From contig NC_017039.1 in assembly GCF_000284455.1 (NCBI RefSeq), positions 1 through 32,000 on the forward strand: a stretch of 32,000 nt of DNA, read 5' to 3'. Each line of letters opens with the position of its first letter. The stretch's first letter is position 1. The translations under genes and the position numbers were made by a program. Positions 14,530 to 32,000 of the stretch are shown piece after piece. This stretch comes from Synechocystis sp. PCC 6803 substr. PCC-P (GTDB lineage Bacteria; Cyanobacteriota; Cyanobacteriia; Cyanobacteriales; Microcystaceae). The notes below the pieces were generated by a model. The model saw only the letters and a list, made by a program, of their open reading frames with translations. It had not been told where the DNA came from and searched no databases.

Positions 14530-14580
14530 TCAAACCTAACGGGTCAACTCCAAAGACAACCCAAGGCCATTCCAGGCTAA

Positions 14581-15675
14581 TTGATTGAATCCCGAATTTT
14601 ATTAACTGTTTGTTCCATTTGTGCCATGTTTGCCCCTCGACCTTGGATTGTGGTCCGTCTCCGGTCTTTACCCCTATCGTTTCGCCTCGATCGCCATGTC
14701 CCCTTGGTAATGGGATTACTTACTGCTCTAGCATTATTACTATTTATTCTCAATATTAGTTGGGGGGAATATCCTGTCCCTCCCTTGGCGATGCTCCAGG
14801 CCATCTTTGGGCTATCTACCGATGCTGACCATGAATTTGTGGTGCGTACTCTGCGATTACCCCGGTCCTTGGTGGCATTGTTGGTGGGTATGGGTTTGGC
14901 GATCGCCGGAGGGATTTTGCAAGGCATTACCCGCAATCCTTTGGCAGCCCCTGAAATTATTGGTGTCAATGCGGGGGCTAGTTTGGTGGCGGTTACCTTC
15001 ATCGTTTTGCTACCGGGTATTTCTCCTTCCTTGCTGCCAGTGGCCGCTTTTTGCGGTGGTTTAACAGCGGCGATCGCCATTTATGTGCTGGCTTGGAATC
15101 AGGGCAGTGCCCCCGTCCGGTTAATTTTGGTGGGCATTGGCCTAGCCGCATTAGCCAGTTCCCTCACCAGTTTGATGGTCACCTTTGGGGAAATTAGCGT
15201 GGTTAGTCAGGCCCTAGTTTGGCTCACTGGTAGCGTCCATGGCCGGGGTTGGGAACATTTATTGCCCCTGCTACCTTGGCTAGCCTTGTTTATTCCCCTC
15301 TCCTTGGCATTGGCCCGGGAGTTGGACACCCTAAACCTAGGGGACAATCTAGCCCGAGGATTGGGTAGCCGGGTGGAATGGATGCGGGGTCTTTTACTAG
15401 TTTGCAGTGTGGCCCTAGCGGGTTCCTGTGTGGCCACCGCCGGCAATATTGGCTTTGTCGGTTTGATGGCTCCCCACCTGGCCCGCCATCTGGTAGGCCC
15501 CTCCCATGGGGGCATGATTCCCGTTGCGGCCCTAACTGGAGCCTGCATTACAGAACTGGCAGATTTAATTGGTAGAACCGTTTTTGCCCCGATAGAAATT
15601 CCCTGCGGAGTAATTACGGCGATCGTGGGCGCTCCCTATTTTCTCTGGCTCCTATACCGAAATCGGAATCAATAG
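14581..15675 (+). CDS. fecD: FecCD-family ferric-siderophore ABC transporter permease (second subunit)
   Basis: Paralogous to the previous gene (RLPRSLVALLVGMGLAIAGGILQGITRNPLAAPEIIGVN; EIPCGVITAIVGAPYFLWLL). The ORF-track start is TTG 14581, but ATG 14626 is more plausible. Recalled as slr1317. Confidence 0.9.
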   Translation: MIESRILLTVCSICAMFAPRPWIVVRLRSLPLSFRLDRHVPLVMGLLTALALLLFILNISWGEYPVPPLAMLQAIFGLSTDADHEFVVRTLRLPRSLVALLVGMGLAIAGGILQGITRNPLAAPEIIGVNAGASLVAVTFIVLLPGISPSLLPVAAFCGGLTAAIAIYVLAWNQGSAPVRLILVGIGLAALASSLTSLMVTFGEISVVSQALVWLTGSVHGRGWEHLLPLLPWLALFIPLSLALARELDTLNLGDNLARGLGSRVEWMRGLLLVCSVALAGSCVATAGNIGFVGLMAPHLARHLVGPSHGGMIPVAALTGACITELADLIGRTVFAPIEIPCGVITAIVGAPYFLWLLYRNRNQ

Positions 15676-15936
15676 CCCCATGACCTCATTTACTTGTTTT
15701 TAGATAACGGTTTCCCGGGGTGAATTACACTGCTCAGTTAGAAAGCAAAAATTTCTTACTATTCCTAATTATTCTTAACAATTAATAGCCACTACAGCAA
15801 TATTTGCAGGAAAAAGGAAGAATCCCCATGGCGACCAAGCATTTAACAGAGGACTATTCGGCATTAAAACCCATTTCCCTGTCCCCCAGTCCTCTACAAT
15901 AATCTCTAATCTTATTAGTAGTTAATCTTAATAACT

Positions 15937-16743
15937 ATGTTGGATGTTGCCACTCCCATTGCCCTCACTACCAGGAAGCTCAGCCTAGCCTACGATAGTC
16001 ACCTAATTATTCAAGGGCTCGATTTGGCAATTAACCAAGGGGAAATCACCACACTGGTGGGACCAAATGGCTGTGGCAAATCTACTCTCCTACGGGGCAT
16101 GGCACGACTACTCAAACCCCAGGGCGGCACCGTGTATTTAGAAGGAGAGGCGATCGCCCATCTGCCCACCAAAGAATTGGCCAAACGTCTGGGTATTTTG
16201 CCCCAAAGCCCCCCCGCCCCGGAAGGATTAACTGTCAGGGAACTGGTGGCCCAGGGCCGTTATCCCCATCAAAACTGGCTACAACAATGGTCAAAACAGG
16301 ATGAATTGAAAGTAGAAGAGGCGATCGCCACCACCGATTTGCATCAATTTGCCAACCGCCCTCTTGATAGCCTTTCGGGAGGCCAACGCCAGAGAGCCTG
16401 GATTGCCATGGCCCTGGCCCAAGACACTGAAATTTTATTGTTAGACGAACCCACCACCTATCTCGATCTAGCCCATCAAATTGAAGTTTTAGATTTACTC
16501 CATTGGCTGAACCGGGAAGCAGGACGCACCATTGTGATGGTATTGCACGACCTCAATTTGGCCTGTCGCTATAGTCATCGCTTGATTGCCCTACGGGATG
16601 GAAAACTACTGGCCCAAGGACGACCCCAGGCGATCGTCACCGAAGAACTAGTACGACAAGTTTTTGGACTGGAGAGCCGCATCATCGCCGATCCCGTCAC
16701 TGGCACCCCTCTCTGTGTACCCGTTAGCCGACACCTAAAATGA
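15937..16743 (+). CDS. fecE: Ferric-siderophore ABC transporter ATP-binding protein
   Basis: Walker [13 protein letters not shown] signature LSGGQRQR, Walker B ILLLDEPT and H-loop VLHD. Recalled as slr1318. Confidence 0.93.
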
Positions 16744-17687
16744 AAAGTAAACTAATAATTTTTACTTTCTGCCTGGTGCTATTTGGTTGTGCTAAACAAG
16801 TACCCGTTGAATTTTCCCCTGGGGAAACCATTCAATCAAACCTAACCCAGCGCACCATAGCCCACGCCATGGGCGTAACGGCAGTCCCCAATGAGCCACA
16901 GCGCATAGTGGTGTTGACCAATGAAGCAACAGATATGGTATTGGCCTTGGGAGTCACCCCGGTGGGGGCAGTTAAATCTTGGTCCGGAGATCCTTACTAC
17001 GAATATTTAGCAAAGGATATGCTTGGAGTCCCCATCGTGGGAGATGAAATGCAGCCTAACCTAGAGAAAATTGTCGCCTTACAGCCGGACTTGATTATCG
17101 GTAGTCGGTTGCGCCAGGGACAAATTTACAAGTCACTGAGTGCCATTGCCCCCACAGTTTTTTCAGAAACCATTGGTGAATCATGGCAAGATAACCTACG
17201 TCTTTATGGGCAGGCCCTTGACAGAGAAGCCGAAGCGGAGCAACTTTTGAACGATTGGGACACGCGTGTGGCCCAAATGCGTCAAAAACTAAGTGCAAAA
17301 GATTTAACAATTTCCCTCGTCCGATTTATGCCAAGGGGAGCCCGCATTTATTTACAAAATTCTTTCCCCGGTCAAATTTTGCAGGCAGTGGGTTTGGAAA
17401 GACCGGCGAGTCAAGCTAACCATGGCTTTGCTGAACATGTTTCCTTCGAGCAAATTCCCCAAATGGAAGCTGATGCACTGTTTTACTTCATCTATACCGG
17501 AGATAGCGGGGACCAAACCCCCGGCAGCATAACGAATCCTTGGTTAAACCATCCCCTATGGCAGCAGTTGGAGGTTGTTCAATCGGGTAAGGCCTACGCT
17601 GTTAGCGATGTGGTTTGGACCACTGCCGGAGGTATCCAAGCCGCCCACCTGCTACTAGATGATTTGGAACGACATTTAGAGCCTTAG
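16740..17687 (+). CDS. fecB: Periplasmic ferric-siderophore/dicitrate binding lipoprotein
   Basis: The start overlaps the fecE stop (ATGA at 16740-16743), suggesting translational coupling. It has a lipobox LFGC in [20 protein letters not shown] and a class-III PBP layout ([22 protein letters not shown]). Recalled as slr1319. Confidence 0.9.
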
Positions 17688-17852: not shown

Positions 17853-20393
17853 TTACCACTCAAATGCATAGCCAATGCGGAGAAATCGTCCCCGGGCGGC
17901 GGCATTACTCAACTCGTTGGGCTGGAGTTGGGACACCACCGGAAAGTAGTCAGTGTTTAACAAATTAGCAATGCCAATTTCCAGTTTCCCAGGGCCAACA
18001 TTGATCCTACTTATGTAGTCCAGGGTGACATAGCTACTGACGGGGAGCTGGCCAAAAACAGTGTTATTGCTAAACACATCACGATCGCCAGAATAGAGGA
18101 GTTGTAGCCGGTTTTGCCAACCGGGGGTGGTTTGGTGTTGTACATAGGCTGTGAGCTTCACCGGTGCAATGCGAAAACCATCGAGGGGAGTATAGTTGCC
18201 GGTGTTCAAGCGGTCAATTTCGCCGGCGGACAAGCTAAATGTGCCCCCCAACTGCCAACTTTCCCCCACCCGGGCATCCATGGTGGCTTCCACTCCATAA
18301 ACCCGTTCCGGTGCTCGCAAAATTTCCCCTGGAGCCGTGAAGGTCGTGCCCAAATCAGAGGAATTATAAAACCCCGCCAAAGAAAAGCGGAGATTTTGCC
18401 AATTGCCCCGCACACCAATTTCGTAATTGTTGACCCGCTGGGCTTCCGGTTGCAGAGTGGCTAGGGAAAAGCCCGCAGGGGCATTACGAAGCACTAGGCC
18501 CACGTCGGCTAGGGAAAAACCTTGGGCAAAGCTGGCAAACAAACTGATGTTATCGGTGACATCTACTACTCCCCCCAGGTTAAAAAGCGTTGCATCGTAG
18601 CTTAAGTCACCCCCTTGGACTGTATTGCCGCCCAGGGTAGTGAAATCATCCACCGACAGGCCCACTTGTTCATGGCGGATGCCCCCCAGTAGGGTGAGCC
18701 AATCGTTAGCCCGCCAGTTCAATTGGCCGAACAATCCCAGGCTGTCTTGGTTGAGAGATGGAACCCAAGTCCTTTTACCAGTATTGCGATAGCTTAAACC
18801 GCCACTGCTATCAAAAGTAACTGGATCAAAAATGTTCACTGGCTGAGCGGTACTTTCATTGTTGTAGTCCGCTCCCCACAGTAGGCGCAGATTTTTTTCT
18901 CCCGTTAGGGGGGTGTCCAGTTGTAGTCTGCCGCCCCACTCGGTGGAGTCAATTTCAGACTGAAAAATACTATTGCCCAAGCTAACGGAGGCTCGGCCGT
19001 CGAAAGGGAAAAACCTAGTCAGATAATCACGATAGTAGATTTGTCCCTTAAGGTTGCCATTGAGGACGTTACTGTGGCTGTAATCAAGGCTGACTACGGT
19101 GTTATTGCTGGTTTGGGGGGTATCAAGGTCCAGCCCGTCAATCGCTTGGGATCTCTGTCTACCGGCGATCGCCGTAATACTAGGATCAACGGTGAAATCA
19201 GTGTTTTGGGTGGCTTGAAAATGATTAATGGTAATTTGCAGGCGCTGTTCGTCAGTCATGTTGATGCCCAATTTACCCAAAACATTAAAGCTATCAGTGT
19301 CCGATACTCCTCCTTGGCCATTGGGATCGGGGGGAATGCGATTACCTAAGGCGTCAAAAAATCCCCCAACGGATTCATAGGATGCGGTGAAAGCGTAGTC
19401 AGCATAGTCAAGGGTTCCGCCCACATATTGTTCCACCATCCTCCCTAGGCTGTTGGATACACTGTCAAAATCGGTGTTGATGGCTAGGCGGGTGCTGGCT
19501 AGGAAGGGCTCAGGGGCAGGACCACGGGTGATGATGTTGATTACTCCTCCAGTGGCACCATCCCCGTAAATGGCCGTTGGCCCCTGGATCACTTCAATCC
19601 GTTCAATGGCACTGGGAGCAATGGTTTGCAAATCTCGGAAGGCATTACGGTTGGTGGTTTGGGGCACACCGTCAATCAAAACCAAAACGTTACGTCCTCG
19701 CAAAGCCTGGCCAAATTGACTGGCACTCCCGGTGCTGGGGGCTAAGCCTGGCACTAGTTGACCCAAAATATCCGCCAAGGAAGAGTAAACCTGGGTTTGT
19801 TGCTCAATTTCTGCCCGTTCAATTACCGTTACCGACCGGGGAATGTTAGCGATTTCCTCCTCTGTACGGGTGGCGGAAACCACAATTTGTAGGGCCTCAC
19901 TTTCCTCTATCTCGGCGGTTGTCCCGGCAACCCCTGGTCGAATCAGCAATTGTAACCCTTGCGAGTTAGGCTTTACTTCGGCTTCCGGTGGCCCATTTAC
20001 CCCCGTGATAGCTAAGCGCACTTGGTTATCGGTCATTTGGGTAACACTGACAAACGCAATGTCCGCAGTGGGGCTCACTTCTTCAAACCCCTGGCCCCCA
20101 GGTAAGGCCATCAAAGTATTGGGAAGATCAATAATTAAGGCATTGCCCACCGTTTGTAGGTTCGGAGAGGCGATCGCCCCTCCCGCTGTCACCAAAATAA
20201 TTTCTAACCCTGGCCCCGATGGCTCTAGACGCACTTCCTGCACTTGTACCAACGATGTCCCCTGATCCAGTTCCACTGTCACAGATGGGGATGGCTCACT
20301 AATAATTTCTTGAGCCCCCAGGGGCATAGCCATCGTTTCCATCACTATTCCAAGGGCGATCGTCCAGCCAAATCGTACTAATCTTGTTTTCAT
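17853..20393 (-). CDS. iutA: TonB-dependent ferric-siderophore outer-membrane receptor (IutA-like) with N-terminal extension
   Basis: Contains a plug (TonB-box-like LQIVVSATRTEEE; IERIEVIQGPTAIYGDGATGGVINIITR), a long beta-barrel and a terminal aromatic ...RIGYAFEW. I place the start at ATG 20393 (signal peptide MKTRLVRFGWTIALGIV...), preceded by GGAGG 7 nt upstream. The ORF-track GTG 20408 lies inside that SD. Recalled as sll1206. Confidence 0.9.
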   Translation of the reverse strand: MKTRLVRFGWTIALGIVMETMAMPLGAQEIISEPSPSVTVELDQGTSLVQVQEVRLEPSGPGLEIILVTAGGAIASPNLQTVGNALIIDLPNTLMALPGGQGFEEVSPTADIAFVSVTQMTDNQVRLAITGVNGPPEAEVKPNSQGLQLLIRPGVAGTTAEIEESEALQIVVSATRTEEEIANIPRSVTVIERAEIEQQTQVYSSLADILGQLVPGLAPSTGSASQFGQALRGRNVLVLIDGVPQTTNRNAFRDLQTIAPSAIERIEVIQGPTAIYGDGATGGVINIITRGPAPEPFLASTRLAINTDFDSVSNSLGRMVEQYVGGTLDYADYAFTASYESVGGFFDALGNRIPPDPNGQGGVSDTDSFNVLGKLGINMTDEQRLQITINHFQATQNTDFTVDPSITAIAGRQRSQAIDGLDLDTPQTSNNTVVSLDYSHSNVLNGNLKGQIYYRDYLTRFFPFDGRASVSLGNSIFQSEIDSTEWGGRLQLDTPLTGEKNLRLLWGADYNNESTAQPVNIFDPVTFDSSGGLSYRNTGKRTWVPSLNQDSLGLFGQLNWRANDWLTLLGGIRHEQVGLSVDDFTTLGGNTVQGGDLSYDATLFNLGGVVDVTDNISLFASFAQGFSLADVGLVLRNAPAGFSLATLQPEAQRVNNYEIGVRGNWQNLRFSLAGFYNSSDLGTTFTAPGEILRAPERVYGVEATMDARVGESWQLGGTFSLSAGEIDRLNTGNYTPLDGFRIAPVKLTAYVQHQTTPGWQNRLQLLYSGDRDVFSNNTVFGQLPVSSYVTLDYISRINVGPGKLEIGIANLLNTDYFPVVSQLQPNELSNAAARGRFLRIGYAFEW

Positions 20394-20480
20394 GTCACGT
20401 CCTCCCACACGTCAGTTACTTGTTGCAAATCTTTCTTGATTGGCTAGGAAAATTAGTGTAGATAGTTGTCTCTGGCCTTG

Positions 20481-20520: not shown

Positions 20521-20526
20521 TGAGGC

Positions 20527-20558
20527 AAAAAAATCCCCGGCTAACGGGAGAAACTCCC
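20527..20558 (-). terminator. Candidate terminator of the pchR-like gene
   Basis: On the minus strand a GGGAG-uuu-CUCCC hairpin (20558-20546) and a short CCGGGGA element are followed by U7 (plus-strand A7 at 20527-20533). This is 57-88 nt after the regulator stop and just before the tandem repeats. Confidence 0.35.
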
Positions 20559-20614
20559 CTAATTTTCTTTGTTTGGGTAGATGGAAATCCTCTGGCTTTA
20601 ACCGGGAGAGACTA

Positions 20615-21595
20615 TCAATTACTCAGCATCCACTGTTTAGGGCTGACACCAAACTGTTTGCGAAACGCCGCGGAGAAGTGGCCTAAGTGGCTATAACCCA
20701 CGTTGTTAGCGACTTCGGCGACAGTGTAATTGCCCTGGGAGAGCAGATCTTTGGCCTGGTGAAGACGTTGTTGGGTCAGATAACCGATTACAGAGGTGCC
20801 AAACAGTTCCCGAAAACCACGGCGGAGGGTACGATCACATAACCCCACCTGCTGGGCCAACTCCAAAACGGAAGGAGGGCTTTCCAGTTGGGCAACTAGT
20901 CTGGCTCTCGCTTCGTAGATCTTCTCAATTGTTTTTGGTTTCAAAGTGCCAGAAAATGGAGAAGAATTTTGGTCGGCCATAATGCTATGCAATTGAAGGG
21001 CGAAAAGTTCAAACACCTTGGCTTGGAGAAAAAAACGTCGCGTCACTCCGTGAAATGGACATTGGAGCATCTGCTGAGCTACTGTCCGCATTTCAACCGT
21101 AATGGAGGGAAACCAAGCCATTTTCCACTCATCCTTTTTGAGTAAAGCTTGGCCTAGGGATAGGGATTGCCCAACTAAAAATTGTTCTAAAATTTGGGGT
21201 TCGAGGTGGACGTTAATGCCTTCTAGGTGGCCCAATTGGCCATACCGTGCCACATAACCAGGGGAAAGGCCACTCCCGGATACATAACCCTTCTTTGTCT
21301 CCAGAGTTGGATAGGTTTCCTCATAATCAACGGTCCCCGACAATAGGACGGTGAACTGTACTAAATGCTCGTGTACCGGTACTTTCAGTGCCCAGGGCCG
21401 GGTAAATTCCTTGTTGATCAAATCCAACCAAACCCCAGGGGAAAGTTCCAAGCAGCGGGTACGGCCATGGCCCAGGCAAGCGGGCAGCCAGCGAATGGTT
21501 TCAAAACTGTCAACTGGAGTGGTGGTGTAATACTCAGGTTCAAAGGGAATTTGACAAAGCTCATGGTAGTCGGACTCGGAAAGAAGTAGGGTCAT
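20615..21595 (-). CDS. pchR: AraC-family transcriptional regulator, PchR-like
   Basis: 326 aa with a C-terminal double HTH (LELAQQVGLCDRTLRRGFRELFGTSVIGYL...AEVANNVGYSHLGHFSAAFRKQFGVSPKQW). It is a close paralogue of the regulator at 27990-29030. Recalled as sll1205. Confidence 0.9.
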   Translation of the reverse strand: MTLLLSESDYHELCQIPFEPEYYTTTPVDSFETIRWLPACLGHGRTRCLELSPGVWLDLINKEFTRPWALKVPVHEHLVQFTVLLSGTVDYEETYPTLETKKGYVSGSGLSPGYVARYGQLGHLEGINVHLEPQILEQFLVGQSLSLGQALLKKDEWKMAWFPSITVEMRTVAQQMLQCPFHGVTRRFFLQAKVFELFALQLHSIMADQNSSPFSGTLKPKTIEKIYEARARLVAQLESPPSVLELAQQVGLCDRTLRRGFRELFGTSVIGYLTQQRLHQAKDLLSQGNYTVAEVANNVGYSHLGHFSAAFRKQFGVSPKQWMLSN

Positions 21596-21837
21596 GGGCA
21601 GATGGGAAGCTGAATAAGCTGAAGTAGATTGAAAGAATTGATCAATCTATTAGTCTACTCCTAATGCAAATTATTCCTAAATATTTGATGGGTTTAATTT
21701 ATTGAGCAAAGCCCTAACGGGCAAAATACCAGTGCAGTATATTTGTTGGAAAAATGTGCTGTGGCGATTGGGACAACCTTGTGGATTATCTCAATAACGA
21801 TGAGAGTTCAATGTCCCATAGGAGATGGTATTACTTG

Positions 21838-23121
21838 CTAATCATCCCCACGTTGATAAATCAATAGACCCCATAGCCCCAATAGAAATGCGAGCACTCC
21901 ACAGTTCACCATTAAGAATGCCATGCCGCTGCCTGGGGGAGGTCCAAAAATTTCATTGATAGGTAGGATTAAAAAGTTACTCAAGTGAGTCAGCATTACC
22001 GATATCTGATTAGCTAAAATTCCTGCGGCCAATCCAGATAAACTACTGATAACAGTGCCGATCAAATAATCTGCAGCCAATACTCGGCCTTGTATTTCCC
22101 GTGCAACTTTCTCATACCAAATTGCTGTATATGAACTGGTGATTAAGGGACTTGGTAGTGATGCACCAACGTTAGCTAGTAGCCAAAATTTTGGTTGGGC
22201 AATCAGTCCCATGGCCAATCGACTGAATCCATTGATTATAAAGCCAATAAAAATACCAGTTGTTCTTCTTTTGAAGCCTCCCCAAATACTACAAATAGTT
22301 CCTCCAACAATACCCCCCACTCCTCCGATGGCCACAATAATCCCTAAAATCTCAGTGTTTCCTCCAGTTTTTGCTAGAATCATAGGCTGGTAAATTACTT
22401 CAGTGATTCCTTCTACAAAGCTAAACAATGAAAAAATGATCAATATCTTTGATAAATTTGGATGGTTATAGATATATTTAAGTCCAAAAAATATATCGTC
22501 AACAAAATTTTCTTTCAATCGTACAACAAATAAAGTTTGGTTGGTGATTTTAGGAGATTTAATTCCGAATGCTATTGGTAGAATCAAGATCGTTATAGCG
22601 GCGATCATGAACGTTGTCATGTCAATTATTGTGATGCCAGTTAGCCCCATCACAGGAAATAAGATTCCAGCCAAAGCGGGGGCAACAATTCCGGCGCTAT
22701 ATGCAGTAATGGCTCCCATACTACTAGCACGAGCATGGTGTTGATAAGGAACAATTAAAGGGACCAGGGTAATATAACTAAGGGTTTGAATGTTACCAAA
22801 ACAACCAATAATAGATGCAATCAGATATATATACTTAACATTAAGAATCTGTAAAAAAGCTAGGATTCCCACAGAAAATGTACATACAGCAGAGCCGATA
22901 TCGCTAACAATTAGCAATTTTTTGTGAGAAAAATAATCAGTAAGGATACCAGATAAAGGTGTAATGATAATTTGCGGGAGCTGATAAAAAACTAAAATCA
23001 AAGCCACTGACATAGCAGAATTTGTCTTTTGCCATATCCATATAGTCAGAGAAAAATAAGTCATACCGCTACCAATAGACGACAGAGCCTGTCCCAAGCA
23101 AAGAGTGACAAAGGTCTTCAT
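21838..23121 (-). CDS. MFS transporter (EntS/macrolide-efflux-like annotation; transport direction unresolved)
   Basis: 427 aa with about 12 hydrophobic segments and a central hydrophilic loop around residues 185-225. AT-rich codon usage. It starts 17 nt after the upstream gene's stop. Recalled as sll1204. Confidence 0.88.
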   Translation of the reverse strand: MKTFVTLCLGQALSSIGSGMTYFSLTIWIWQKTNSAMSVALILVFYQLPQIIITPLSGILTDYFSHKKLLIVSDIGSAVCTFSVGILAFLQILNVKYIYLIASIIGCFGNIQTLSYITLVPLIVPYQHHARASSMGAITAYSAGIVAPALAGILFPVMGLTGITIIDMTTFMIAAITILILPIAFGIKSPKITNQTLFVVRLKENFVDDIFFGLKYIYNHPNLSKILIIFSLFSFVEGITEVIYQPMILAKTGGNTEILGIIVAIGGVGGIVGGTICSIWGGFKRRTTGIFIGFIINGFSRLAMGLIAQPKFWLLANVGASLPSPLITSSYTAIWYEKVAREIQGRVLAADYLIGTVISSLSGLAAGILANQISVMLTHLSNFLILPINEIFGPPPGSGMAFLMVNCGVLAFLLGLWGLLIYQRGDD

Positions 23122-23138
23122 TTATTTTTGTAAATTAA

Positions 23139-24104
23139 TTATTTATCAATTTCTTTTAAGTAGCTGACACTATACTGCTTGACAGAAATAAGTTCATCTC
23201 CTGAATTTCTAGCAGTCATCACTGACCCATTGACTTCAACTCTTGCAAAATAAGCTCCTTTAACTTTATCGGGAGAAATAAAATCAAATTGAACCTCTAC
23301 CCAATTGGGATCATGCTGATTATCATCCATGTTCAATATTTGAGCTGATTTTTGATAATTTAACCATTGCCAACCTCGTTGAGTCCAAATTTCACGCTCA
23401 ACAATCTGGGCAAATTTTGTTACGCCTACCCAACCTCGATAAAATTTATAAAGTTGTTTAACTTGACCTTCTTGCCTTACCAGATTATCTAAAACTTCAG
23501 ACTCAAGATGTCCCCAAACTTGCCCATTTGGAAAATCAATTAAAGTCGGAGCAAACTGATGTCCCCCAAAATGAGAGCAGCGCCATATTCTTAAATTTTT
23601 TGATGCATATTTTTGTCGTAATTGTTTATAAATAGGATAACCAAATCTCGAACAAGCCACATCAATGTTTCCATGAGTACATACCATCATATCTCGATCA
23701 ACAACATCTGACAGTTTATAGTTACGAAAATTTTCTAACTCTGGAGATTGATAACATAAATTTTTGATAAGATCCCACCTTTGATCATCAGGAACTAAAT
23801 ATTCTTCTTTTATAAAACTGGAAAAGAGCAAATTAAACTTTTGGTAGTGAATAATACGACTAAATCCTGATTGAGAATACTCGTGATCTGAGGCGATCGC
23901 CATTGGAGATACTTTAACTCCTTGATCAGAAAGTTGATGAAAAAGATCATGAATTGGTTTAAGAATGGGGTCATGATGAAAGCGTTCCTCTGTCCAAGGT
24001 TGGGGTAATTCCATAATTAACCAACGATCACTTGAATTTGCTGTGCCGATAGGATCTTCCCCGTTAGATTTGGAAATAACGGAACAAAATTGACAATTAA
24101 TCAT
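23139..24104 (-). CDS. Sucrase/ferredoxin-like (thioredoxin-like, putative [2Fe-2S]) protein
   Basis: 321 aa with no signal peptide. The N-terminal block CQFC...IGTANSSDRWLIMELPQPW is present, as are C-X8-C (VCTHGNIDVAC, residues 142-151) and H-X3-H (SHFGGH, residues 178-182). The start overlaps the upstream stop (ATGA 24101-24104). Recalled as sll1203. Confidence 0.8.
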   Translation of the reverse strand: MINCQFCSVISKSNGEDPIGTANSSDRWLIMELPQPWTEERFHHDPILKPIHDLFHQLSDQGVKVSPMAIASDHEYSQSGFSRIIHYQKFNLLFSSFIKEEYLVPDDQRWDLIKNLCYQSPELENFRNYKLSDVVDRDMMVCTHGNIDVACSRFGYPIYKQLRQKYASKNLRIWRCSHFGGHQFAPTLIDFPNGQVWGHLESEVLDNLVRQEGQVKQLYKFYRGWVGVTKFAQIVEREIWTQRGWQWLNYQKSAQILNMDDNQHDPNWVEVQFDFISPDKVKGAYFARVEVNGSVMTARNSGDELISVKQYSVSYLKEIDK

Positions 24105-25144
24105 GGTTTTTGATTGGTTAAGAGTTGTTTTTTTAATTCATTAAGATAAAGTTTTGTACCGAAAAAACCTGGTAAACCCGTGCATAGATAAGTTGGAATA
24201 TAATAAACACGATTTTCTCGACTTGCTTTCATTGATTGTGTTATTGCATTTTCTGACCACTGTTGTTGTAAATTAGATAATTGATGCTCAGTAAAATTTT
24301 GTCTACTTTTTGATTTATTGAATTCTTGAAAATTATAACCTAAGATAATAATTGAATTGGCATTATTTAACTTAGGAAGAGATTCTAAAGAAAGGGGCAG
24401 TCTTGAATTTGTAGATGTACCTGCTCCTGGTAAAGAAACTAATTCAAATCCCAATTCTTCAATTAGAGAGCTACAAAGATCTTCATTATTGGCAATAGAC
24501 AATTCCTGTAAATTTTGAGCATGAAGTAGAAGCATTTTGGGGTATCCTGCAACAATTTTGGAAAATTCCTGCTTTGCTTTTTCAATTTCTTGCTGAGTTT
24601 CTTGTAAAAGTTGTTCGACTTTTTCTTCTTGCTTAACAGCCTGGGCAATCTTCTCTAGATTTTCAGTAGGTTCATTCCAAGATAACATTAAGGTAGGTGC
24701 AAGTTGAGAAAATTTTTGATATTCATTTTTATTATGATCAGGACTCAAAATTAAATCAGGTTTTGCTTTAAAAATTCCTTCTAACGAAGGCATGTAAGCA
24801 ATTCCTACATTGGCAATGGGTTTATTAATATATTGTCCCAAATAAGGAATTTGCTCGGTAGGATGATCATAATCTTCTTTATGAAAAGCAATGTGATCTG
24901 CATAGGCAATAGGTTGAATGTTTAACGCTAGTAAAGGTTCTAATAAATAGGGACCAAGTACAACAACTCTTTGAGGAATTCCACAGATTTCAGTTTCTCC
25001 CATTTTATGCTCAATTATCCGGCAACCTTTTTTATCTGATTGTTGTAGATGTGAAGATCGATCTATGTTTGTATTACAAGAAGTCAAAAGAGACGTCATA
25101 AAAATCATGAGAGTAGAAAAGTAATTTATCTTATATTTTTTCAT
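24101..25144 (-). CDS. Periplasmic siderophore-binding lipoprotein (FecB/FhuD-like)
   Basis: 347 aa with a signal peptide and lipobox (MIFMTSLLTSCNT). It has PBP class-III features (RVVVLGPYLLEPLLALNIQPIAYA; KPDLILS) and is paralogous to fecB at 16740-17687. Recalled as sll1202. Confidence 0.88.
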   Translation of the reverse strand: MKKYKINYFSTLMIFMTSLLTSCNTNIDRSSHLQQSDKKGCRIIEHKMGETEICGIPQRVVVLGPYLLEPLLALNIQPIAYADHIAFHKEDYDHPTEQIPYLGQYINKPIANVGIAYMPSLEGIFKAKPDLILSPDHNKNEYQKFSQLAPTLMLSWNEPTENLEKIAQAVKQEEKVEQLLQETQQEIEKAKQEFSKIVAGYPKMLLLHAQNLQELSIANNEDLCSSLIEELGFELVSLPGAGTSTNSRLPLSLESLPKLNNANSIIILGYNFQEFNKSKSRQNFTEHQLSNLQQQWSENAITQSMKASRENRVYYIPTYLCTGLPGFFGTKLYLNELKKQLLTNQKP

Positions 25145-25265
25145 ACAATAATTTAAATATGTAAGTATAAATAGCTCTCCTCTGCTTTTTGACTGGAGCT
25201 AAAGAAGAGCAGATTTTTTTGAACTTCCTAAATCATTAAAAAAACAGCAAGTAACTTTTAATGAT

Positions 25266-27839
25266 TTAAAACTGAACCGAAAATGAGCCAATAATAATAA
25301 ATGGTTCACCAGGTTCAATTCCTGTTTGGTTACCACTGACTGCTCGGACGTAGTTAGCATTAGTAAAATTCCTCAAGTTTAGGGCAACTCGATATTTATC
25401 TCGTTGGTAAAAAATCGCTGCGTTTCCGATGATATAATCCCCCACTGTGTAGGTATTAGCTAAATCACCAAAACGATCGCCAACGTAATTAAAGCCAATT
25501 CCAAACCCTAGTCCTTGTAATGCCCCCGATTGAATTTCATAGGTCGTCCATAAATTCGCCATATTATAGGGAATACCAAATAGGCGGTTATCGACAAAAT
25601 TAGGATCTGTATCCTCGGTGACTTTTGCATTGATATAAGAATAGTTACCAATAATTTTCCAGCCGGGTAAAATTTCTCCCACAATATCTAGTTCAATGCC
25701 TTGGCTTTGTTGTGTTCCAATGGTAGATAAAAATAGGGGATTAACTGGATCGCTAACCGCTACATTATTTTTACTAATATTAAAATAAGTTAAGGTTGTG
25801 AGAAGTTGTTGCTCAAATAGTTCCGCTTTAACGCCAATTTCAAAACCTTCTCCCCGTTCTGGTTCTAGGGGATTGCCACTGATATCTATTCCACTATTGG
25901 GAGTGAAAGATTGGGAATAGTTGCTAAAGAAGCTAATTTCCGGAATTGGACGATATAGTAGGCCTATCCTTGGTGTAACTGCACTATCTGTTTGTTGTGT
26001 ATTTCCCCCTTGGTTAAAATCAGTTTGTAAATTATTTGTGTTTTGAGTGATAGTATCGTAACGAAGTCCTGCAACTAAAATTAGATTTTCTAATAAAGAA
26101 ACTTGATCCTGTAGATAAATTCCCAAACGATTGGAACTGGTAAAAGTATCGCCAAAAAGAGGTAAATCAGAGCGATTAGGTTTGGGAATTGCATTATAAT
26201 CGGGATCAAATACGTTAATTGACGTCGGACCACCAAAAAGCGTTAAAATACTCTCTTCAGACCAGTTATAATCAATTCCAGCTAAGAGCTCATGTTTAAC
26301 TGAGCCTGTAGAAAATTTACCGACAGCATTGGTATAGAAAGAATAGGAGCCCTGTTGTCCGTCCTGGTCAGCAAAGAAGCGGGTAACCGTTGGCCCATTC
26401 ACAATAGTAGGAAGAGCAATGACGTTATAGTCATAGTTGTAGCTCATATAGCGAAAAGCATTGCGTAACTTCCAATTTTCATTGAAGCGATGCTCTAGAT
26501 TATATCCAGCGCTAATAAAGTTTTTGTTAACAATATCACTGGGATCATTAATTACCCGCGAGCGGGGTACTGGTGCAACCCCATCTCCGAAGCTACTCAA
26601 GCCAAAGTCAGCAGGATTCGTGTCATTAATATATTCAACAGCTAAACTTAAATCTGTGTCGTCAGTGATAGCATAGGTGACAATGGGAGCGTAGGCAAAT
26701 CGTTCTAACGGTTGATTAAAGTCGCGAAAACTCGCTTCATTACTATAAACGCCGTTTAATCGATAACGTAAATTCCCACTGGGATTTAAACCACCTGAAA
26801 TATCAAAACGGGGACGAACTAATCCTTGATTACCTAATTGCACTTCGACTTCAGCAAACGGTTCATTAAGTGGTTTTTTCGAGTTTAAATTAATTACACC
26901 TCCGGGTTCAATTTGGCCATATAAAATAGAAGAAGGACCTTTGAGCACTTCCACCTGTTGTAGGTGAGAAACTTCCGTAATCCCTTGAAACCCTCCATAA
27001 AGTCGAAAACCATCCCTAAGAATAGGAACCGTATCACTAAATTGATTGCCAAATCCTCGAATACCAAAGATAGTTTCTCTTCCCCCTGTAGTACCGCCAA
27101 AAGTCACACTGCTAACATTTGTCAACACATCTTCGAGGGTGATGGCTTGTTGGGAACGAATTACTTCTTCTGAAACAACCTGTGCAGAAAAAGGCGTATC
27201 CATAATGGGAGTGTCAGTCCCCGTGGCAACCGAAGTGTTGGGAACGAAAAATTCTTGGACTGCTGCTTCTTCTTCTCGGGTAGCAACAATTTCGATTTCT
27301 TCTTCCGATTCCACTGTGTTAATTGGAGGCGTTAGGCTCAAAATTAAATTTTCGGATGATGGTATCACCTGAGCGGCGGGAACAGTACCATTGCCAGTTA
27401 CGGTAATGCGTAGTGAATTTGAACTTGTCTGTACGGCGGTTATTTGACTAATTTGCTCACTGGGATTCTCAACTATAAAATTTTCCCCATCTGGTAGCCT
27501 TAAAACTGCGTCTAAAATATCGATGATGAGAATATTGTCCTCACTAATAATTAAGGGTATTAGCTGGGATTGATCGGCCGTTTTTAAAATTAATTCAATG
27601 CCAGTTTGCGTATCTTTAAGTTCAATTTGGATAACTTCTTTAATTTGAGCTTGGGATATTTGCTGTTGCCAATTTTCTATCTTTACATTTGCCTTATATT
27701 CATTCTGTAACTCCTGATCTTCTAATTTTTCTTTTTCAGATAAATTACTTTCCCCTACTGATCCTAGGGCAACACCAGAATGTAAGGCCGTCAAACCAAT
27801 CAAAACGGCGAGCGAAGTCTGTTCCAAAATTTTGATCAT
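25266..27839 (-). CDS. TonB-dependent siderophore receptor (FhuA-like) with N-terminal extension
   Basis: Contains a plug (EIEIVATREEE...; VEVLKGPSSILYGQIEPGGVINLNSKKP), a barrel and a terminal ...GSFSVQF. I place the start at ATG 27839 (MIKILEQTSLAVLIGLTALHSGVALG), preceded by GGGGAG. The ORF-track start is GTG 27857. Recalled as sll1409. Confidence 0.9.
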   Translation of the reverse strand: MIKILEQTSLAVLIGLTALHSGVALGSVGESNLSEKEKLEDQELQNEYKANVKIENWQQQISQAQIKEVIQIELKDTQTGIELILKTADQSQLIPLIISEDNILIIDILDAVLRLPDGENFIVENPSEQISQITAVQTSSNSLRITVTGNGTVPAAQVIPSSENLILSLTPPINTVESEEEIEIVATREEEAAVQEFFVPNTSVATGTDTPIMDTPFSAQVVSEEVIRSQQAITLEDVLTNVSSVTFGGTTGGRETIFGIRGFGNQFSDTVPILRDGFRLYGGFQGITEVSHLQQVEVLKGPSSILYGQIEPGGVINLNSKKPLNEPFAEVEVQLGNQGLVRPRFDISGGLNPSGNLRYRLNGVYSNEASFRDFNQPLERFAYAPIVTYAITDDTDLSLAVEYINDTNPADFGLSSFGDGVAPVPRSRVINDPSDIVNKNFISAGYNLEHRFNENWKLRNAFRYMSYNYDYNVIALPTIVNGPTVTRFFADQDGQQGSYSFYTNAVGKFSTGSVKHELLAGIDYNWSEESILTLFGGPTSINVFDPDYNAIPKPNRSDLPLFGDTFTSSNRLGIYLQDQVSLLENLILVAGLRYDTITQNTNNLQTDFNQGGNTQQTDSAVTPRIGLLYRPIPEISFFSNYSQSFTPNSGIDISGNPLEPERGEGFEIGVKAELFEQQLLTTLTYFNISKNNVAVSDPVNPLFLSTIGTQQSQGIELDIVGEILPGWKIIGNYSYINAKVTEDTDPNFVDNRLFGIPYNMANLWTTYEIQSGALQGLGFGIGFNYVGDRFGDLANTYTVGDYIIGNAAIFYQRDKYRVALNLRNFTNANYVRAVSGNQTGIEPGEPFIIIGSFSVQF

Positions 27840-27905
27840 TTTTTGTGCTCCCCACACTTACTGATAATTAATGGATATATTCTAGGGGAAAGCCAAAATG
27901 TATTT

Positions 27906-27947
27906 CTTTGTAGGACGGACTTTTTTCTTTGTGAAACGGACTTTTTA
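27906..27947 (-). promoter_or_regulatory. Perfectly tandem 21-bp direct repeat (17/21 identical), candidate PcrR operator of the receptor promoter
   Basis: Plus strand reads CTTTGTAGGACGGACTTTTTT (27906-27926) / CTTTGTGAAACGGACTTTTTA (27927-27947). The repeat lies between the AraC gene stop (27990) and the receptor ATG (27839). A possible -10 TAGAAT (27884-27879, minus strand) puts the proximal repeat against the -35 position. Confidence 0.5.
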
Positions 27948-27989: not shown

Positions 27990-29030
27990 CTATTTGTAGA
28001 AAATTGTCTTTTGATGGGTTTTGGGGCTAACTCCAAATTTTCGTCTAAATGCCATGCAAAAAGCTTCTGGATTGGTATATCCTACCCTTTGTGCTACCTG
28101 GGCCACGGATAAGTTATTATCTGCTAATAATTGCTGAGCCTGTTGCATGCGATAATTATACAGATAACCAAATACGGTCGTGCCAAATAGTTGACGAAAG
28201 CCTTGTTTTAGCTTACGCTCATTTAAGCTAACTTGTCGAGATAACTGTGCCAAGGAAGGAGGATCAAGTACTTGTTTGACCAAGATTTCCTGTGCATATT
28301 TCACTCTTTCTAAATCGTCTTTTTTTAATTGAGATGCTTTTTTTTCTGATTTAGTAGCATCCATACAATTAAATTGCCAGGCAAATAATTCTAAAGCCTT
28401 ACTTTCTAAATAAATTTGTTTAATTATGCCTTGATAGGGACATTGATAAATTTGCTGTAATATCTCAGTGACTTTAAGTGTGTTTTTACCTAGTGATAAG
28501 TGGAACTTTAAATCACGATCGCCTGTGATTAATTGGTTAATTAAGCTAGGAGCAAAGTTTTCACTTTGATAAAAACAACTGAAATAATCAACAGGAGCAT
28601 AAACACTAACTAATTTTATTTCAGTATCACATGGCCATTGCTCGAGTTCTGATAAATTAGGTAAATGATAAAGATAATTTCTGCCCGCTAATTCTGTATA
28701 TTTTGGCTCAATTTCTTTAGTTTTAAATGTTTCTACTACTGAATTTCCTGTAAGATAAAAGTGAGCAACTAGAGGAAAATTCTTCTTATGATTCCTCTTT
28801 AAGTACATAACTTCGGCAAGTTGTACCTGAATAATTTCAATTGTTAAGCCGTCCCTCAACTGGATAGATCGATTATACCCTTTACCCAGTCTTTGCGGTA
28901 AATTTATTATGGTTTCATTGTCTTGAAAATGTACTGTAAATTCATCAAAATCAACAATTTGTCTTGAAGTAGTTGGTTGATTTGGTAAAACAATCGTGGT
29001 GTTGGGATCAAATACATTAACATCTTTCAT
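27990..29030 (-). CDS. pcrR: AraC-family transcriptional regulator, PchR/PcrR-like
   Basis: 346 aa with a C-terminal double HTH (LAQLSRQVSLNERKLKQGFRQLFGTTVFGYL...AQVAQRVGYTNPEAFCMAFRRKFGVSPK). It is colinear with the regulator at 20615-21595 but in much more AT-rich DNA. Recalled as sll1408. Confidence 0.9.
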   Translation of the reverse strand: MKDVNVFDPNTTIVLPNQPTTSRQIVDFDEFTVHFQDNETIINLPQRLGKGYNRSIQLRDGLTIEIIQVQLAEVMYLKRNHKKNFPLVAHFYLTGNSVVETFKTKEIEPKYTELAGRNYLYHLPNLSELEQWPCDTEIKLVSVYAPVDYFSCFYQSENFAPSLINQLITGDRDLKFHLSLGKNTLKVTEILQQIYQCPYQGIIKQIYLESKALELFAWQFNCMDATKSEKKASQLKKDDLERVKYAQEILVKQVLDPPSLAQLSRQVSLNERKLKQGFRQLFGTTVFGYLYNYRMQQAQQLLADNNLSVAQVAQRVGYTNPEAFCMAFRRKFGVSPKTHQKTIFYK

Positions 29031-29097: not shown

Positions 29098-29895
29098 TCA
29101 TTTTACTGTGTATGCCCAGATTTCGAATTGTGCTTGAGACGATAACTCCACCTTTAATGAATCGTAATATTCATAACAAAATACTTCAAATTCCTTTATG
29201 GCAAGATTAAATGCTTCATCTGGAAGGAGCCAGCATAATCCATAGGCATGTGATCTGTAAAAATGGAGTAGTTCTTGCACCTGATTGCTTACCGTCCATT
29301 CCTTAGCTGTCAAATAATTACACTGATACCCTTTATTTAGTAAATATTCATCTATATTAATTTTGTTAGTTACTTCTAATGATTGTTGTGAAGGCTTTGG
29401 CTCTTGATACTTAAGCAAAATAGTTTTGAAATGGTTCTCAAATTCTAGATGTGCAGGGGGAGTAACCCATTGAGCATTTAAATAAAAACCATTTGGTTTT
29501 AGGACTCGATCAATCTCATCTAAAAACATACCTAAATTGGAAACAGAATGAAGCATATGAACCGTTAACACTACGTCGAAGCTGCTGTCTGGAAAAGATA
29601 GTTGCGATGCATCTTCATGGATCAACCTAAGATTCGGAGGAATACGGGGCAACTTTTGAGAAAATTGGCTAAGCATTTCCTGAGAAATATCAACACCAGT
29701 TACAGAATAACCACGTCTGACTAAAGGAATGACATTGAGCCCAGTCCCTACACCAGGCTCAAGAAAAGTAGTTTCTCTTGTTGCCTTCACTAGAGCGAGA
29801 ATAAAATCTGCAACTTCTTCAGCAATTGGTTCTGTCATCCAGCGAGTTTGATCGTAAATGTCAGCAATTTTGCTGTAGTAAACATTTTTTTTCAT
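29098..29895 (-). CDS. Class I SAM-dependent methyltransferase
   Basis: 265 aa with motif I FLEPGVGTGLN, an acidic post-I residue (VTGVDIS), motif II/III region (FDVVLTVHMLH, LKPNGFY), and an unassigned C-terminal domain of about 110 aa. Recalled as sll1407. Confidence 0.85.
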   Translation of the reverse strand: MKKNVYYSKIADIYDQTRWMTEPIAEEVADFILALVKATRETTFLEPGVGTGLNVIPLVRRGYSVTGVDISQEMLSQFSQKLPRIPPNLRLIHEDASQLSFPDSSFDVVLTVHMLHSVSNLGMFLDEIDRVLKPNGFYLNAQWVTPPAHLEFENHFKTILLKYQEPKPSQQSLEVTNKINIDEYLLNKGYQCNYLTAKEWTVSNQVQELLHFYRSHAYGLCWLLPDEAFNLAIKEFEVFCYEYYDSLKVELSSQAQFEIWAYTVK

Positions 29896-29967: not shown

Positions 29968-32000
29968 CTAGAATGTTACGCCAATTTTTCCTACTACCGT
30001 AAAGGGAGCCCCGGGATAAACACTCAGGTCAAAATCATTTGATTCGGCCAAATACTGGGTATTAAACAAATTTTCGATGTTTAATTGTAATTCCCAATTT
30101 TCCCGACGATAAAAAATGGCAGCATCGGTGCGGAAATAGCTGGGTAACACAAAGGTGTTGTCCAAGTCCCCCTCCCGTTGATCAACATAAAATAGTCCTA
30201 AACCAAAGCCCAAGCCTTGTAAATTTCCCGATTGAATTTCATAGGTTGTCCAGAGGCTAAACTGGTTGCTAGGAACATTAGATAAAGTGTTGTCTACGAT
30301 ATCGGTATTATCTTGGCTTACAAAAGCATCAAGGTAACTATAACCGGTGACAATATTCCAACCAGGCAAAATTTCTCCACCCAGGTAAAGCTCCACCCCT
30401 CGGCTAGTTTGTTCCCCTGTTTGAATGGTAAATAATAGATTGGCAGGATCAATGGTAGGAACATTTTGTTTCCTAATATCAAATGCCGAGAAAGTCACAC
30501 TTAACTTGTCGGTAATGTCTGCCTTAACTCCCACTTCAAACTGGCGACCGGTCTGGGGATCAAAGGTAGAACCATCGGCGTTGAGGGAGGCGGCAAAAGA
30601 AGGATTAAAAGAGGTGGTGTAAGAGCCATAAAGGGAAACCGTGGGAATTGGTTGATAGATAATACCAACCCGGGGTGTTAATTGGTTATCGGTTTGGTTA
30701 AATTCTTCCCTTGGATCTGTAATAGACTGGGTCGACCGATTTTGGGTAGCGGAATCGTAACGGAGTCCCACCAATAGCTTCAGGTTGTCAAATAAATCCA
30801 TTTGATCCTGTAGATAAACCGCAAAGCGATTGACTTGATCATCACGGAAAAATTCTGGCGCGATGGGGAAAGGGGTATTGGTGTAAACCGGGTTGAAAAC
30901 ATTAATGGGAGCAAAGGTGTTGCTGAATTGAAATTCTGGAGTCTCTGTATCGTTACGATACTCCAATCCAAATAACACCCGATGTTTAACCGGCCCAGTG
31001 TAGAATTCTCCTATCAATTCTGCATTGGTGAAAAAACGCTGATAATTTCCTCCCCCATAATATTCAAATCGATTTAATTCCCCAGTATCTTCGTCAAAAA
31101 AGTCAAAGAGGGGCGCATAGCGGACGGGGGCGTAGGCCAAGTATTGCATGGCATGGCGTAGCTTCAGATTTTCGTTAAAATCGTGGTTGAAGGTGTAGCC
31201 AATTAGGTATTGATCTTGCTCAAATTTACTAAATCGCTCTCCTAAAAATCGATTCGATGGCAAGTCTGCGATATTTGGTGCTGGGATGCCTTCATCTAAG
31301 GTTTCCCGATTGGTTGTGTATTGTCCATAGATATTCAACTTCGTGTCTGGACCAATATTCCAAGTTAAAGTTGGTGATACAACCCAGAGATCACCGTAGA
31401 CGAAATCTCGAAAACTGCCGGAGGTTTCATAGGAAACATTGAGACGATAATTAACTGTATCAATGGCTTCCGGTAGGAGGGGACCGGATAAATCCACATC
31501 TAAACGATAGTCATTATAATTACCAAGGGACACAGCCGCATTGTAATAGGGTTCATCCAAAGGTTTTTTGGAAATTAGGTTGATTGATCCCCCGGGTTCT
31601 CCAGCACCAAACACAATGGAAGAGGGGCCTTTGAGCACTTCTATTTGTTCGATGTCTGTGGTATTTAAGGGGGCTAAGGATTGATAGGGAATGCCATCAC
31701 GAAAAATACTGTTATTGACGGGAAATCCACGGATTAGAAAGCCGGGGCCAAAAACACTAGTTCCCCTGCCCCCGGCGGGGCTAACCCCTGGCACTGTTTG
31801 GAGGGCTGGTCCCAATTCGGTTACGTTTCGGTCTTGTAAGACCTGTTGGGGCACAACTTGAATGGACTGGGGGATATCGAGTAAAGGGGTATCTAATCCT
31901 GTGGCGGTGGAAGCACTGGGCACAAAGTAGCTAGCTTCCCCCTGCCCTTCTTGGGTGGCTACCACTTCAATTTCTGATTCTGGATTCTCAGGGGCGATCG
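29968..32000 (-). CDS. fhuA: TonB-dependent siderophore receptor (FhuA-like), N-terminus outside the window
   Basis: The reading frame stays open from the listed GTG 31965 to the window edge (...IAPENPESEIEVVATQEGQ...), matching the acidic linker/TonB-box region of the two other receptors. It has a plug (IEVLKGPSSIVFGAGEPGGSINLISKKP) and a terminal ...GKIGVTF. Recalled as sll1406. Confidence 0.9.
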   Translation of the reverse strand, partial: IAPENPESEIEVVATQEGQGEASYFVPSASTATGLDTPLLDIPQSIQVVPQQVLQDRNVTELGPALQTVPGVSPAGGRGTSVFGPGFLIRGFPVNNSIFRDGIPYQSLAPLNTTDIEQIEVLKGPSSIVFGAGEPGGSINLISKKPLDEPYYNAAVSLGNYNDYRLDVDLSGPLLPEAIDTVNYRLNVSYETSGSFRDFVYGDLWVVSPTLTWNIGPDTKLNIYGQYTTNRETLDEGIPAPNIADLPSNRFLGERFSKFEQDQYLIGYTFNHDFNENLKLRHAMQYLAYAPVRYAPLFDFFDEDTGELNRFEYYGGGNYQRFFTNAELIGEFYTGPVKHRVLFGLEYRNDTETPEFQFSNTFAPINVFNPVYTNTPFPIAPEFFRDDQVNRFAVYLQDQMDLFDNLKLLVGLRYDSATQNRSTQSITDPREEFNQTDNQLTPRVGIIYQPIPTVSLYGSYTTSFNPSFAASLNADGSTFDPQTGRQFEVGVKADITDKLSVTFSAFDIRKQNVPTIDPANLLFTIQTGEQTSRGVELYLGGEILPGWNIVTGYSYLDAFVSQDNTDIVDNTLSNVPSNQFSLWTTYEIQSGNLQGLGFGLGLFYVDQREGDLDNTFVLPSYFRTDAAIFYRRENWELQLNIENLFNTQYLAESNDFDLSVYPGAPFTVVGKIGVTF

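Follow-up and report, generated by a model that had tools for sequence, protein, structure and literature searches.

Apd1 and Aim32 of yeast belong to the Suc_Fer-like family (PF06999 / IPR009737) and carry a bis-histidinyl, non-Rieske [2Fe-2S] cluster, for which the spectroscopy is well described and the biochemical function not agreed. Their motif is C-X8-C-X24-75-H-X-G-G-H, as quoted in PMC11138216 from Stegmaier et al. 2019, and the cluster ligands of Aim32 are C213, C222, H249 and H253, an assignment by Stegmaier 2019 as relayed in a JBC 2021 paper (PMC8482512), which also reports that mutating these residues impairs function in yeast. Histidine ligation of a [2Fe-2S] cluster gives proton-coupled electron transfer (PMC11138216). 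In cyanobacteria, CctD (BAU16020.1, Leptolyngbya sp. NIES-3755 plasmid 2) is part of the cyanochelin B transport cassette, and the CctD-type family recurs in siderophore transport loci; the preprint describing it raises iron reduction by CctD merely as a possibility and calls its function unresolved (bioRxiv 10.64898/2026.07.30.741596). A 2019 review had placed a 'thioredoxin-like protein' beside a siderophore-binding protein as well as a receptor in a candidate anachelin cluster (PMC6562677). In this work, we focused on a 32,000-nucleotide stretch of Synechocystis sp. PCC 6803 substr. PCC-P (NC_017039.1, positions 1 to 32,000; hereafter the window) and on the Suc_Fer-like, i.e. Apd1/Aim32-type, gene that it carries on the minus strand at 23139..24104 (stop included). 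Its product very probably holds the same kind of cluster, and we weigh its possible part in releasing iron from imported siderophores.

The gene was taken from the list of open reading frames (ORFs); it encodes 321 amino acids, and its homologues are named 'sucrase ferredoxin' by NCBI. The translation contains C142-THGNIDVA-C151 and H178-FGG-H182, i.e. a putative ligand motif C142-X8-C151-X26-H178-F-G-G-H182 at 23559..23681 (-), the ligand codons lying at 23681-23679 (C142), 23654-23652 (C151), 23573-23571 (H178) and 23561-23559 (H182). The original prediction, made from the DNA letters, had named exactly these residues and this span, and had given the spacing as that of Apd1/Aim32; translation and codon mapping agree with the former, and the latter is borne out by X26 falling inside the published range of X24-75 (PMC11138216). 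A regular-expression search for the motif, with the whole window translated in six frames, gave a single match, at this position. When the residues of the protein itself were shuffled 200,000 times, the motif arose in 5 of the shuffles; the match is not a chance event. The protein has six cysteines and no CC pair.

A hidden Markov model search against PF06999, as advised in the original prediction, gave a clear match (E = 3.3e-32; 112.6 bits against a cut-off of 34.9) that extends over residues 19-224 and takes in positions 2-191 of the 191 in the profile. Yeast Aim32 reaches 111.3 bits on this model, so the window protein fits it as well as a founding member does. The Aim32 sequence of S. cerevisiae S288C (P0230, 311 aa) was confirmed by exact look-up in the protein collection. 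The four residues C142, C151, H178 and H182 align position for position with C213, C222, H249 and H253 of Aim32 (BLASTP E = 4e-5; hhalign probability 88 %, E = 3e-6), and hhalign matched the ferredoxin domain of the window protein to Aim32 residues 206-307. The 90 %-identity cluster that holds Aim32 also lists GAL80 proteins (435 aa), one of them as its representative; this is taken to be a database clustering artefact with no bearing on the finding, and in yeast the two genes presumably lie next to each other on the chromosome.

Pfam family, motif and a cluster domain of thioredoxin-like ferredoxin fold are common to the window protein and Aim32/Apd1. Identity to Aim32 is ~25 % and detectable over the cluster domain only. 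The motif sits in the middle of the window protein, where a 97-residue alpha+beta domain follows at the point at which Aim32 ends, and 141 residues precede the first ligand against 212 in Aim32. The window protein has no mitochondrial presequence and ends in ...KEIDK, whereas a C-terminal Trp is described for Apd1/Aim32. Its context is bacterial siderophore uptake, as opposed to an undefined function or redox quality control in yeast.

An AlphaFold2 model of the window protein was built from 40 homologues (mean pLDDT 86.9, pTM 0.85). The top five Foldseek matches in the PDB are all the thioredoxin-like [2Fe-2S] ferredoxin of Aquifex aeolicus (1m2d/1f37), with a probability of 0.99, ~97 aligned columns and a target TM-score of 0.56-0.63, at E values of just 0.02-0.06; the equivalent domains of HydABC hydrogenases come next. 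The thioredoxin-like fold anticipated in the original prediction was thereby recovered. Sequence searches of the PDB with the window protein and with a 40-sequence profile returned nothing meaningful and no solved structure of any family member. An AlphaFold model of Apd1 contains two ferredoxin-like domains, of which FD1 has no metal site and only the second (FD2) has the 2Cys2His pocket; on superposition, this pocket coincides with the 4-Cys site found in a thioredoxin-like ferredoxin from bacteria (PMC11126956). In the window protein, the domain equivalent to FD2 spans residues ~136-224 (23433..23699 (-)) according to the AlphaFold2 model, Foldseek and hhalign to Aim32. Residues 19-135 (23700..24050 (-)) lie within the Pfam match, have alpha/beta secondary structure in the model and probably form a cluster-less, FD1-like half. 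When the N-terminal half, the ferredoxin domain and the C-terminal domain were compared with one another by hhalign, their sequences gave no sign of an internal repeat or of a common origin.

Classical thioredoxin-like [2Fe-2S] ferredoxins (Aquifex aeolicus Fd4, A. vinelandii FeSI, NuoE/HydB-type) are the best structural matches, and Apd1/Aim32-type ligands occupy the same fold positions as theirs (PMC11126956). They differ in the second ligand pair, which is C-X3-C in place of the H-X3-H that follows C-X8-C in the window protein. They are also ~100-residue homodimers with ~14 % identity to this three-part, 321-residue protein, in which their four-cysteine motif Cys-X10-12-Cys-X29-34-Cys-X3-Cys (PMC11138216) is absent. 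Rieske proteins have Cys-X-His-X15-47-Cys-X2-His (PMC11138216) on a Rieske fold, whereas the window protein has the order C,C,H,H on a thioredoxin-like fold and matches no Rieske model of Pfam; an NCBIfam scan matched zero models. As judged from homology, the window protein is very likely a cytoplasmic PF06999 member whose thioredoxin-like ferredoxin domain binds one [2Fe-2S] cluster. Cys142 and Cys151 would ligate one iron, and His178 and His182 the other, reducible iron.

A homologue search among 5.8 billion proteins yielded 953 matches, and the best 120 were considered in detail. All 120 carry PF06999, they are named 'sucrase ferredoxin' or 'hypothetical protein' only, and every named organism among them is a cyanobacterium; Synechocystis sp. 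PCC 7339 (94 %) and Geminocystis sp. NIES-3709 (74 %) provide the closest ones. The full motif is present in 119 of these 120 and reads H-I-G-A-H in the remaining one. The four ligands are invariant in a 40-sequence cyanobacterial alignment, together with T143, H144, D148, W174, G180, H199 and others, and they remain so once the alignment is extended to the homologues of Picosynechococcus PCC 7002 (30 % identical) and of Deinococcus gobiensis (28 %). Cys7 (codon 24084..24086 (-)), an N-terminal cysteine outside the Pfam model, is likewise invariant, both across the 40 aligned sequences from cyanobacteria and in the two distant homologues, from PCC 7002 and Deinococcus. The N-terminal family block pointed out in the original prediction is present, but its 'CQFC' precedes the part covered by the Pfam model, which begins at residue 19, and its C4 is lost in the PCC 7002 and Deinococcus homologues, so that the block is partly a clade feature. 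Two histidines other than the assigned ligands were also noted: H144 is invariant from cyanobacteria to Deinococcus, and H199 in the 40-sequence cyanobacterial alignment. Members from Chondrinema (L086:5965-6894), Shinella and Agrobacterium (L087:6001-6873, L088:5662-6540) have C-X8-C...H-X-G-G-C, for which 3Cys/1His ligation is predicted.

Aim32 ends at the equivalent of residue ~225; residues 225-321 (23142..23432 (-)) are consequently an addition, and these 97 residues past the Pfam match correct the 'roughly 110' given in the original prediction for the part beyond the motif region. Searched alone against 1.84 billion representative proteins, this add-on domain has 110 relatives, located at the C-terminal end of ~320-360-residue proteins or in fragments. 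Three multi-stretch matches were discarded as low-complexity noise, and the genuine relatives that were scanned against Pfam with enough sequence have Suc_Fer-like upstream in every case. The domain was also modelled separately (pLDDT 92.7), and in this model a single long helix packs against an antiparallel sheet of four strands; a fold search with it gave no significant PDB match, the best being VirB8/cystatin/NTF2-like (E 0.05, TM <= 0.5). The add-on domain is real, conserved and clade-specific.

The N-terminus, as read from the translation, shows no hydrophobic or signal-like stretch, in line with the cytoplasmic location predicted earlier, whereas the neighbouring periplasmic siderophore-binding protein (PBP; 24101..25144 (-), Pfam Peripla_BP_2) has a lipoprotein-like leader. 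The stop codon of this PBP gene overlaps the start codon of the Suc_Fer-like gene as ATGA at 24101-24104. Further upstream are the genes for an AMIN-domain TonB-dependent transporter (TBDT; 25266..27857 (-), Pfam AMIN, Plug and TonB_dep_Rec_b-barrel) and, upstream of the whole module, an AraC-type regulator (27990..29030 (-), Pfam HTH_18/HTH_AraC). Downstream, 17 nt past the Suc_Fer-like stop, comes an MFS_3 (EntS-like) transporter (21838..23121 (-), Pfam MFS_1/MFS_3), which like the regulator is a conserved neighbour. The Suc_Fer-like gene is predicted to be co-transcribed and translationally coupled with the TBDT and PBP genes. An ABC importer with the order FecCD-FecCD-ATPase-PBP (Pfam FecCD twice, ABC_tran, Peripla_BP_2) is encoded at 13498..17687 (+). 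The window contains no non-ribosomal peptide synthetase (NRPS), NRPS-independent siderophore (NIS) synthetase or other siderophore biosynthesis genes, so the cluster is one of uptake; the 'siderophore-operon gene' of the original prediction does sit in a siderophore gene cluster, but not in a biosynthetic operon. Among the window ORFs scanned with Pfam, neither a FhuF-type reductase nor one of the siderophore-interacting protein (SIP) type was found.

In order to place this arrangement among other genomes, relatives were sought in one genome per species (GTDB), which gave 401 loci; neighbourhoods were taken from the best 80, all cyanobacterial, onto which the window neighbours were mapped by tblastn. 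TBDT, PBP or FecCD genes lie within 3-5 kb in 33-36 of these 80 loci. The typical import-linked layouts are co-directional, i.e. AraC-TBDT-PBP-X-MFS or TBDT-PBP-MFS-X (X being the Suc_Fer-like gene). The homologue P0034, from Anabaena sp. FACHB-709 according to NCBI, has the layout AraC-TBDT-PBP-X-MFS with the same 4-nt PBP/X overlap. A guess that alr2209-alr2213 was the orthologous region of Anabaena PCC 7120 was given up, as no thioredoxin-like gene could be tied to this region from the papers describing it. Import genes also accompany more distant members: ExbB-ExbD-X beside a TBDT and a PBP on plasmid pAQ7 of PCC 7002, PBP-PBP-X-FecCD-PBP-FecCD-ATPase on plasmid P1 of Deinococcus gobiensis, and TBDT-FecCD-ATPase-PBP-X in Chondrinema litorale (Bacteroidota). 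Of the 39 plasmid records that matched, 13 are from Deinococcus, and in 11 of those the annotation is sucrase ferredoxin.

CctD and the window protein share 48.3 % identity over residues 1-320 of the window protein, a full-length homology that includes the motif and the C-terminal domain, and both are encoded inside a TBDT-PBP-MFS import cassette. They differ by a 25-30 residue insertion in the C-terminal domain of CctD. The gene order is CctA-B-C(MFS)-D-E-F in the CctD cassette and TBDT-PBP-X-MFS, with permeases 6 kb away, in the window, and the latter, unlike the CctD cassette, has no adjacent biosynthetic cluster.

We consider the chances to be about even that the window protein would serve as a one-electron, proton-coupled cytoplasmic donor reducing imported ferric siderophore. 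Ferric siderophore would reach the cytoplasm by way of the TBDT, the PBP and the FecCD/ATPase importer encoded nearby, and there the reduced bis-His cluster would hand one electron, coupled to a His-ligand proton, to the Fe(III)-siderophore; Fe(II) would then dissociate, and the siderophore, now free of iron, may be pumped out by MFS_3. As a guess, the C-terminal domain is a candidate for docking, either of the siderophore or of a partner protein. Reductive iron release, offered as inference in the original prediction, is plausible and now has comparative-genomic support.

A chemical rationale comes from the two known classes of ferric-siderophore reductases, FhuF and the SIPs, both of which show a redox-Bohr effect; an argument has been made that selection required this effect in both (PMC8068687); a bis-His centre would have this property built in. 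FhuF of E. coli, of the ferric-siderophore reductase (FSR) class, is a cytoplasmic [2Fe-2S] protein of siderophore utilisation that transfers one electron with a pH-dependent potential, a feature that bis-His ligation would also give. Its cluster motif is C-C-x10-C-x2-C and its structure mainly helical (PMC8068687), so that sequence and fold are unrelated to those of the window protein, which has no match to the FhuF or FhuF_C models of Pfam at E <= 1. The resemblance is thus one of working, i.e. the window protein may work like FhuF, and not one of membership. SIPs (YqjH/ViuB flavoreductases) perform the step proposed for the window protein, reductive iron release from imported ferric siderophore, with a redox-Bohr effect (PMC8068687); they are FAD/NAD(P)H proteins, whereas the window protein has PF06999 only and no such domains. 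More broadly, and with a likelihood that we set somewhat below even, bacterial proteins combining Suc_Fer-like and the C-terminal domain could constitute a third class of cytoplasmic ferric-siderophore reductases beside FhuF-type FSR and flavin SIPs, built on a bis-His [2Fe-2S] centre and found in Cyanobacteria, Deinococcus and Bacteroidota (there as a 3Cys/1His variant), the same scaffold acting as a redox partner of cytochrome P450 in siderophore-like gene clusters of Nostocales that encode polyketide synthases (PKS) and NRPS.

Several points weigh against a role in siderophore reduction. The ligand loops are modelled at low pLDDT (residues 180-182 < 50), although a low-confidence ligand loop is usual when the cofactor is absent from the model. 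The potentials of Apd1/Aim32 may exceed those of hydroxamate siderophores. Members from Shinella and Agrobacterium are found in a catabolic cluster with a GntR regulator, and the siderophore-linked member of Chondrinema has H-X-G-G-C instead of H-X-G-G-H, so that bis-His ligation is not required for the association with siderophore import. In engineered Synechocystis, CctD was dispensable for cyanochelin-B-dependent growth, as were the permeases (bioRxiv 10.64898/2026.07.30.741596); host complementation or siderophore photolysis could explain this. Finally, in a large sister clade the gene directly follows one or two P450 genes and precedes a MatE exporter gene, and is not beside importers.

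This sister clade comprises 38-39 of the 80 loci, as a monophyletic block in a neighbour-joining tree (all among loci L033-L080), and its hosts are heterocyst-forming filamentous genera only (Nostoc, Anabaena, Scytonema, Fischerella and relatives). Its proteins bear the signature C-THAQVDLA-C + WQTTHFGGH, as against C-THGNxDxA-C + WRCSHFGGH in the import-linked ones. The cluster order is PKS - NRPS (C-A-T-TE) - P450 - P450 - X - MatE (e.g. L037:3079-12401), and in L054 (22-18676) the cluster is adjoined by FecCD/ATPase genes and by a penicillin-amidase gene, which we take to be PvdQ-like. These may be lipopeptide-siderophore clusters in which the Suc_Fer-like protein is the redox partner of the P450s. 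A gene placed after P450 genes is in the classical redox-partner position, which supports the family as one of electron carriers and at the same time keeps alive the view that the window protein serves an enzyme and not the siderophore. It would then be a generic one-electron carrier that supplies some other part of siderophore metabolism (for example an oxygenase, an enzyme of tailoring or recycling, or the methyltransferase pathway of the cluster), a view to which the members in non-siderophore catabolic clusters also lend weight. The window's cluster encodes no P450, oxygenase or other obvious redox client, however, the tightest coupling is with the binding-protein gene, and the neighbours in Deinococcus and Chondrinema are import components only; we therefore regard a generic carrier as unlikely, though the strongest of the alternatives to siderophore reduction.

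The bis-His centre might otherwise report on iron. Among His-ligated [2Fe-2S] clusters, such as that of mitoNEET, lability or a sensor function is common. The module has AraC regulators at its flanks in the window and in most related loci, and a GntR regulator accompanies the members from alphaproteobacteria. An iron/redox sensor, in which the oxidation state or the occupancy of a labile, His-ligated [2Fe-2S] cluster would report cytoplasmic iron and modulate the transporter or AraC, nevertheless appears improbable: Pfam detects no DNA-binding or signalling domain in the window protein, there is no regulator among the annotated neighbours in Deinococcus, Chondrinema and PCC 7002, and AraC siderophore regulators usually sense the siderophore itself.

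Slightly less probable again is that the protein accepts or chaperones the iron released from siderophores, or is a scaffold for Fe-S assembly, and donates no electron. The gene is placed where iron enters the cytoplasm, and the protein has the extra invariant residues C7, H144 and H199 besides the four ligands; on the other side, searches of Pfam, NCBIfam and the PDB detected no relation to known iron chaperones or scaffolds, and the homologous yeast site holds a stable, spectroscopically defined [2Fe-2S] cluster (PMC8482512, PMC11138216). Action as a thiol-disulfide or redox quality-control protein on cysteine-containing partners, as proposed for Aim32, which has been linked to thiol redox control (PMC8482512), would find a site in the C4-x-x-C7 pair near the N-terminus, where a predicted helix begins; but C4 is not kept in the PCC 7002 and Deinococcus homologues, the N-terminus is modelled at low confidence and the context is iron import and not protein folding, so we give this reading little credence. 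A sucrose-cleaving activity, suggested by the inherited name 'sucrase ferredoxin' and by the statement that some family members show sucrolytic activity (bioRxiv 10.64898/2026.07.30.741596), was rejected as next to impossible, since Pfam finds no glycoside-hydrolase domain, conservation falls on metal ligands, the neighbouring genes serve iron transport and the yeast members are Fe-S proteins.

Other features of the window were recorded as well. Upstream of the AraC gene lie those of a class-I S-adenosylmethionine (SAM) methyltransferase (29098..29895 (-)) and, beyond it, of a TBDT with Plug (from residue 28) and barrel only in Pfam and no AMIN domain (29968..31965 (-)). A 596-aa protein fusing a methyltransferase to Suc_Fer-like and the C-terminal domain (P0161) was not relied on as a link to the methyltransferase gene of the cluster, because its similarity to the window methyltransferase (34 % over 92 aa) is that of the generic SAM-binding core only. 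Downstream of MFS_3 lie an AraC regulator gene (20615..21595 (-)) and, last in minus-strand order, an AMIN-TBDT gene (17853..20408 (-)). The AMIN domain is thus at the N-terminus of two of the three TBDTs of the window (17853-20408 and 25266-27857), a fusion described as exclusive to cyanobacteria (bioRxiv 10.64898/2026.07.30.741596).

Between the upstream AraC gene and its neighbouring TBDT gene, a tandem direct repeat of AAGTCCGTnnnACAAAGAA (two copies, 21 nt apart; 27904..27943 (-)) lies ~20 nt upstream of TAGAAT. It has two matches in the window, a number reached in 5 of 100 shuffles, and is a candidate binding box for the AraC activator. A scan for sigma-70 promoters and terminators over 20300-29200 gave counts no higher than in shuffles and was thus uninformative on operon boundaries. 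Housekeeping cyanobacterial genes flank the iron cluster, i.e. those of GUN4, of a rubrerythrin-domain protein, presumably an AcsF-type cyclase, and psbA; by these three, the DNA of the window is cyanobacterial. A Uma2-family endonuclease-like gene lies between a DNA ligase gene and the FecCD genes. Coordinates recorded for this flanking region are 2172-4268 (-), 7229-8311 (+) and 12755-13363 (+).

The protein is annotated ('sucrase ferredoxin') and the association of its family with siderophore loci is already reported; the finding therefore refines and extends existing knowledge and opens no new ground. Our literature search found no paper characterising a bacterial member or noting the bis-His motif in bacterial members, and no characterised cyanobacterial ferric-siderophore reductase. 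With its translational coupling to genes of siderophore import, seen in several phyla, such a family member is a concrete candidate both for iron release in cyanobacteria and for the function of Apd1/Aim32, and the window protein is a well-defined experimental target. If the proposed role is true, the enzymes known to release iron by reduction would gain a third class; it would explain why the family keeps His-ligated, proton-coupled [2Fe-2S] centres and would provide the first concrete biochemical function for the Apd1/Aim32 family.

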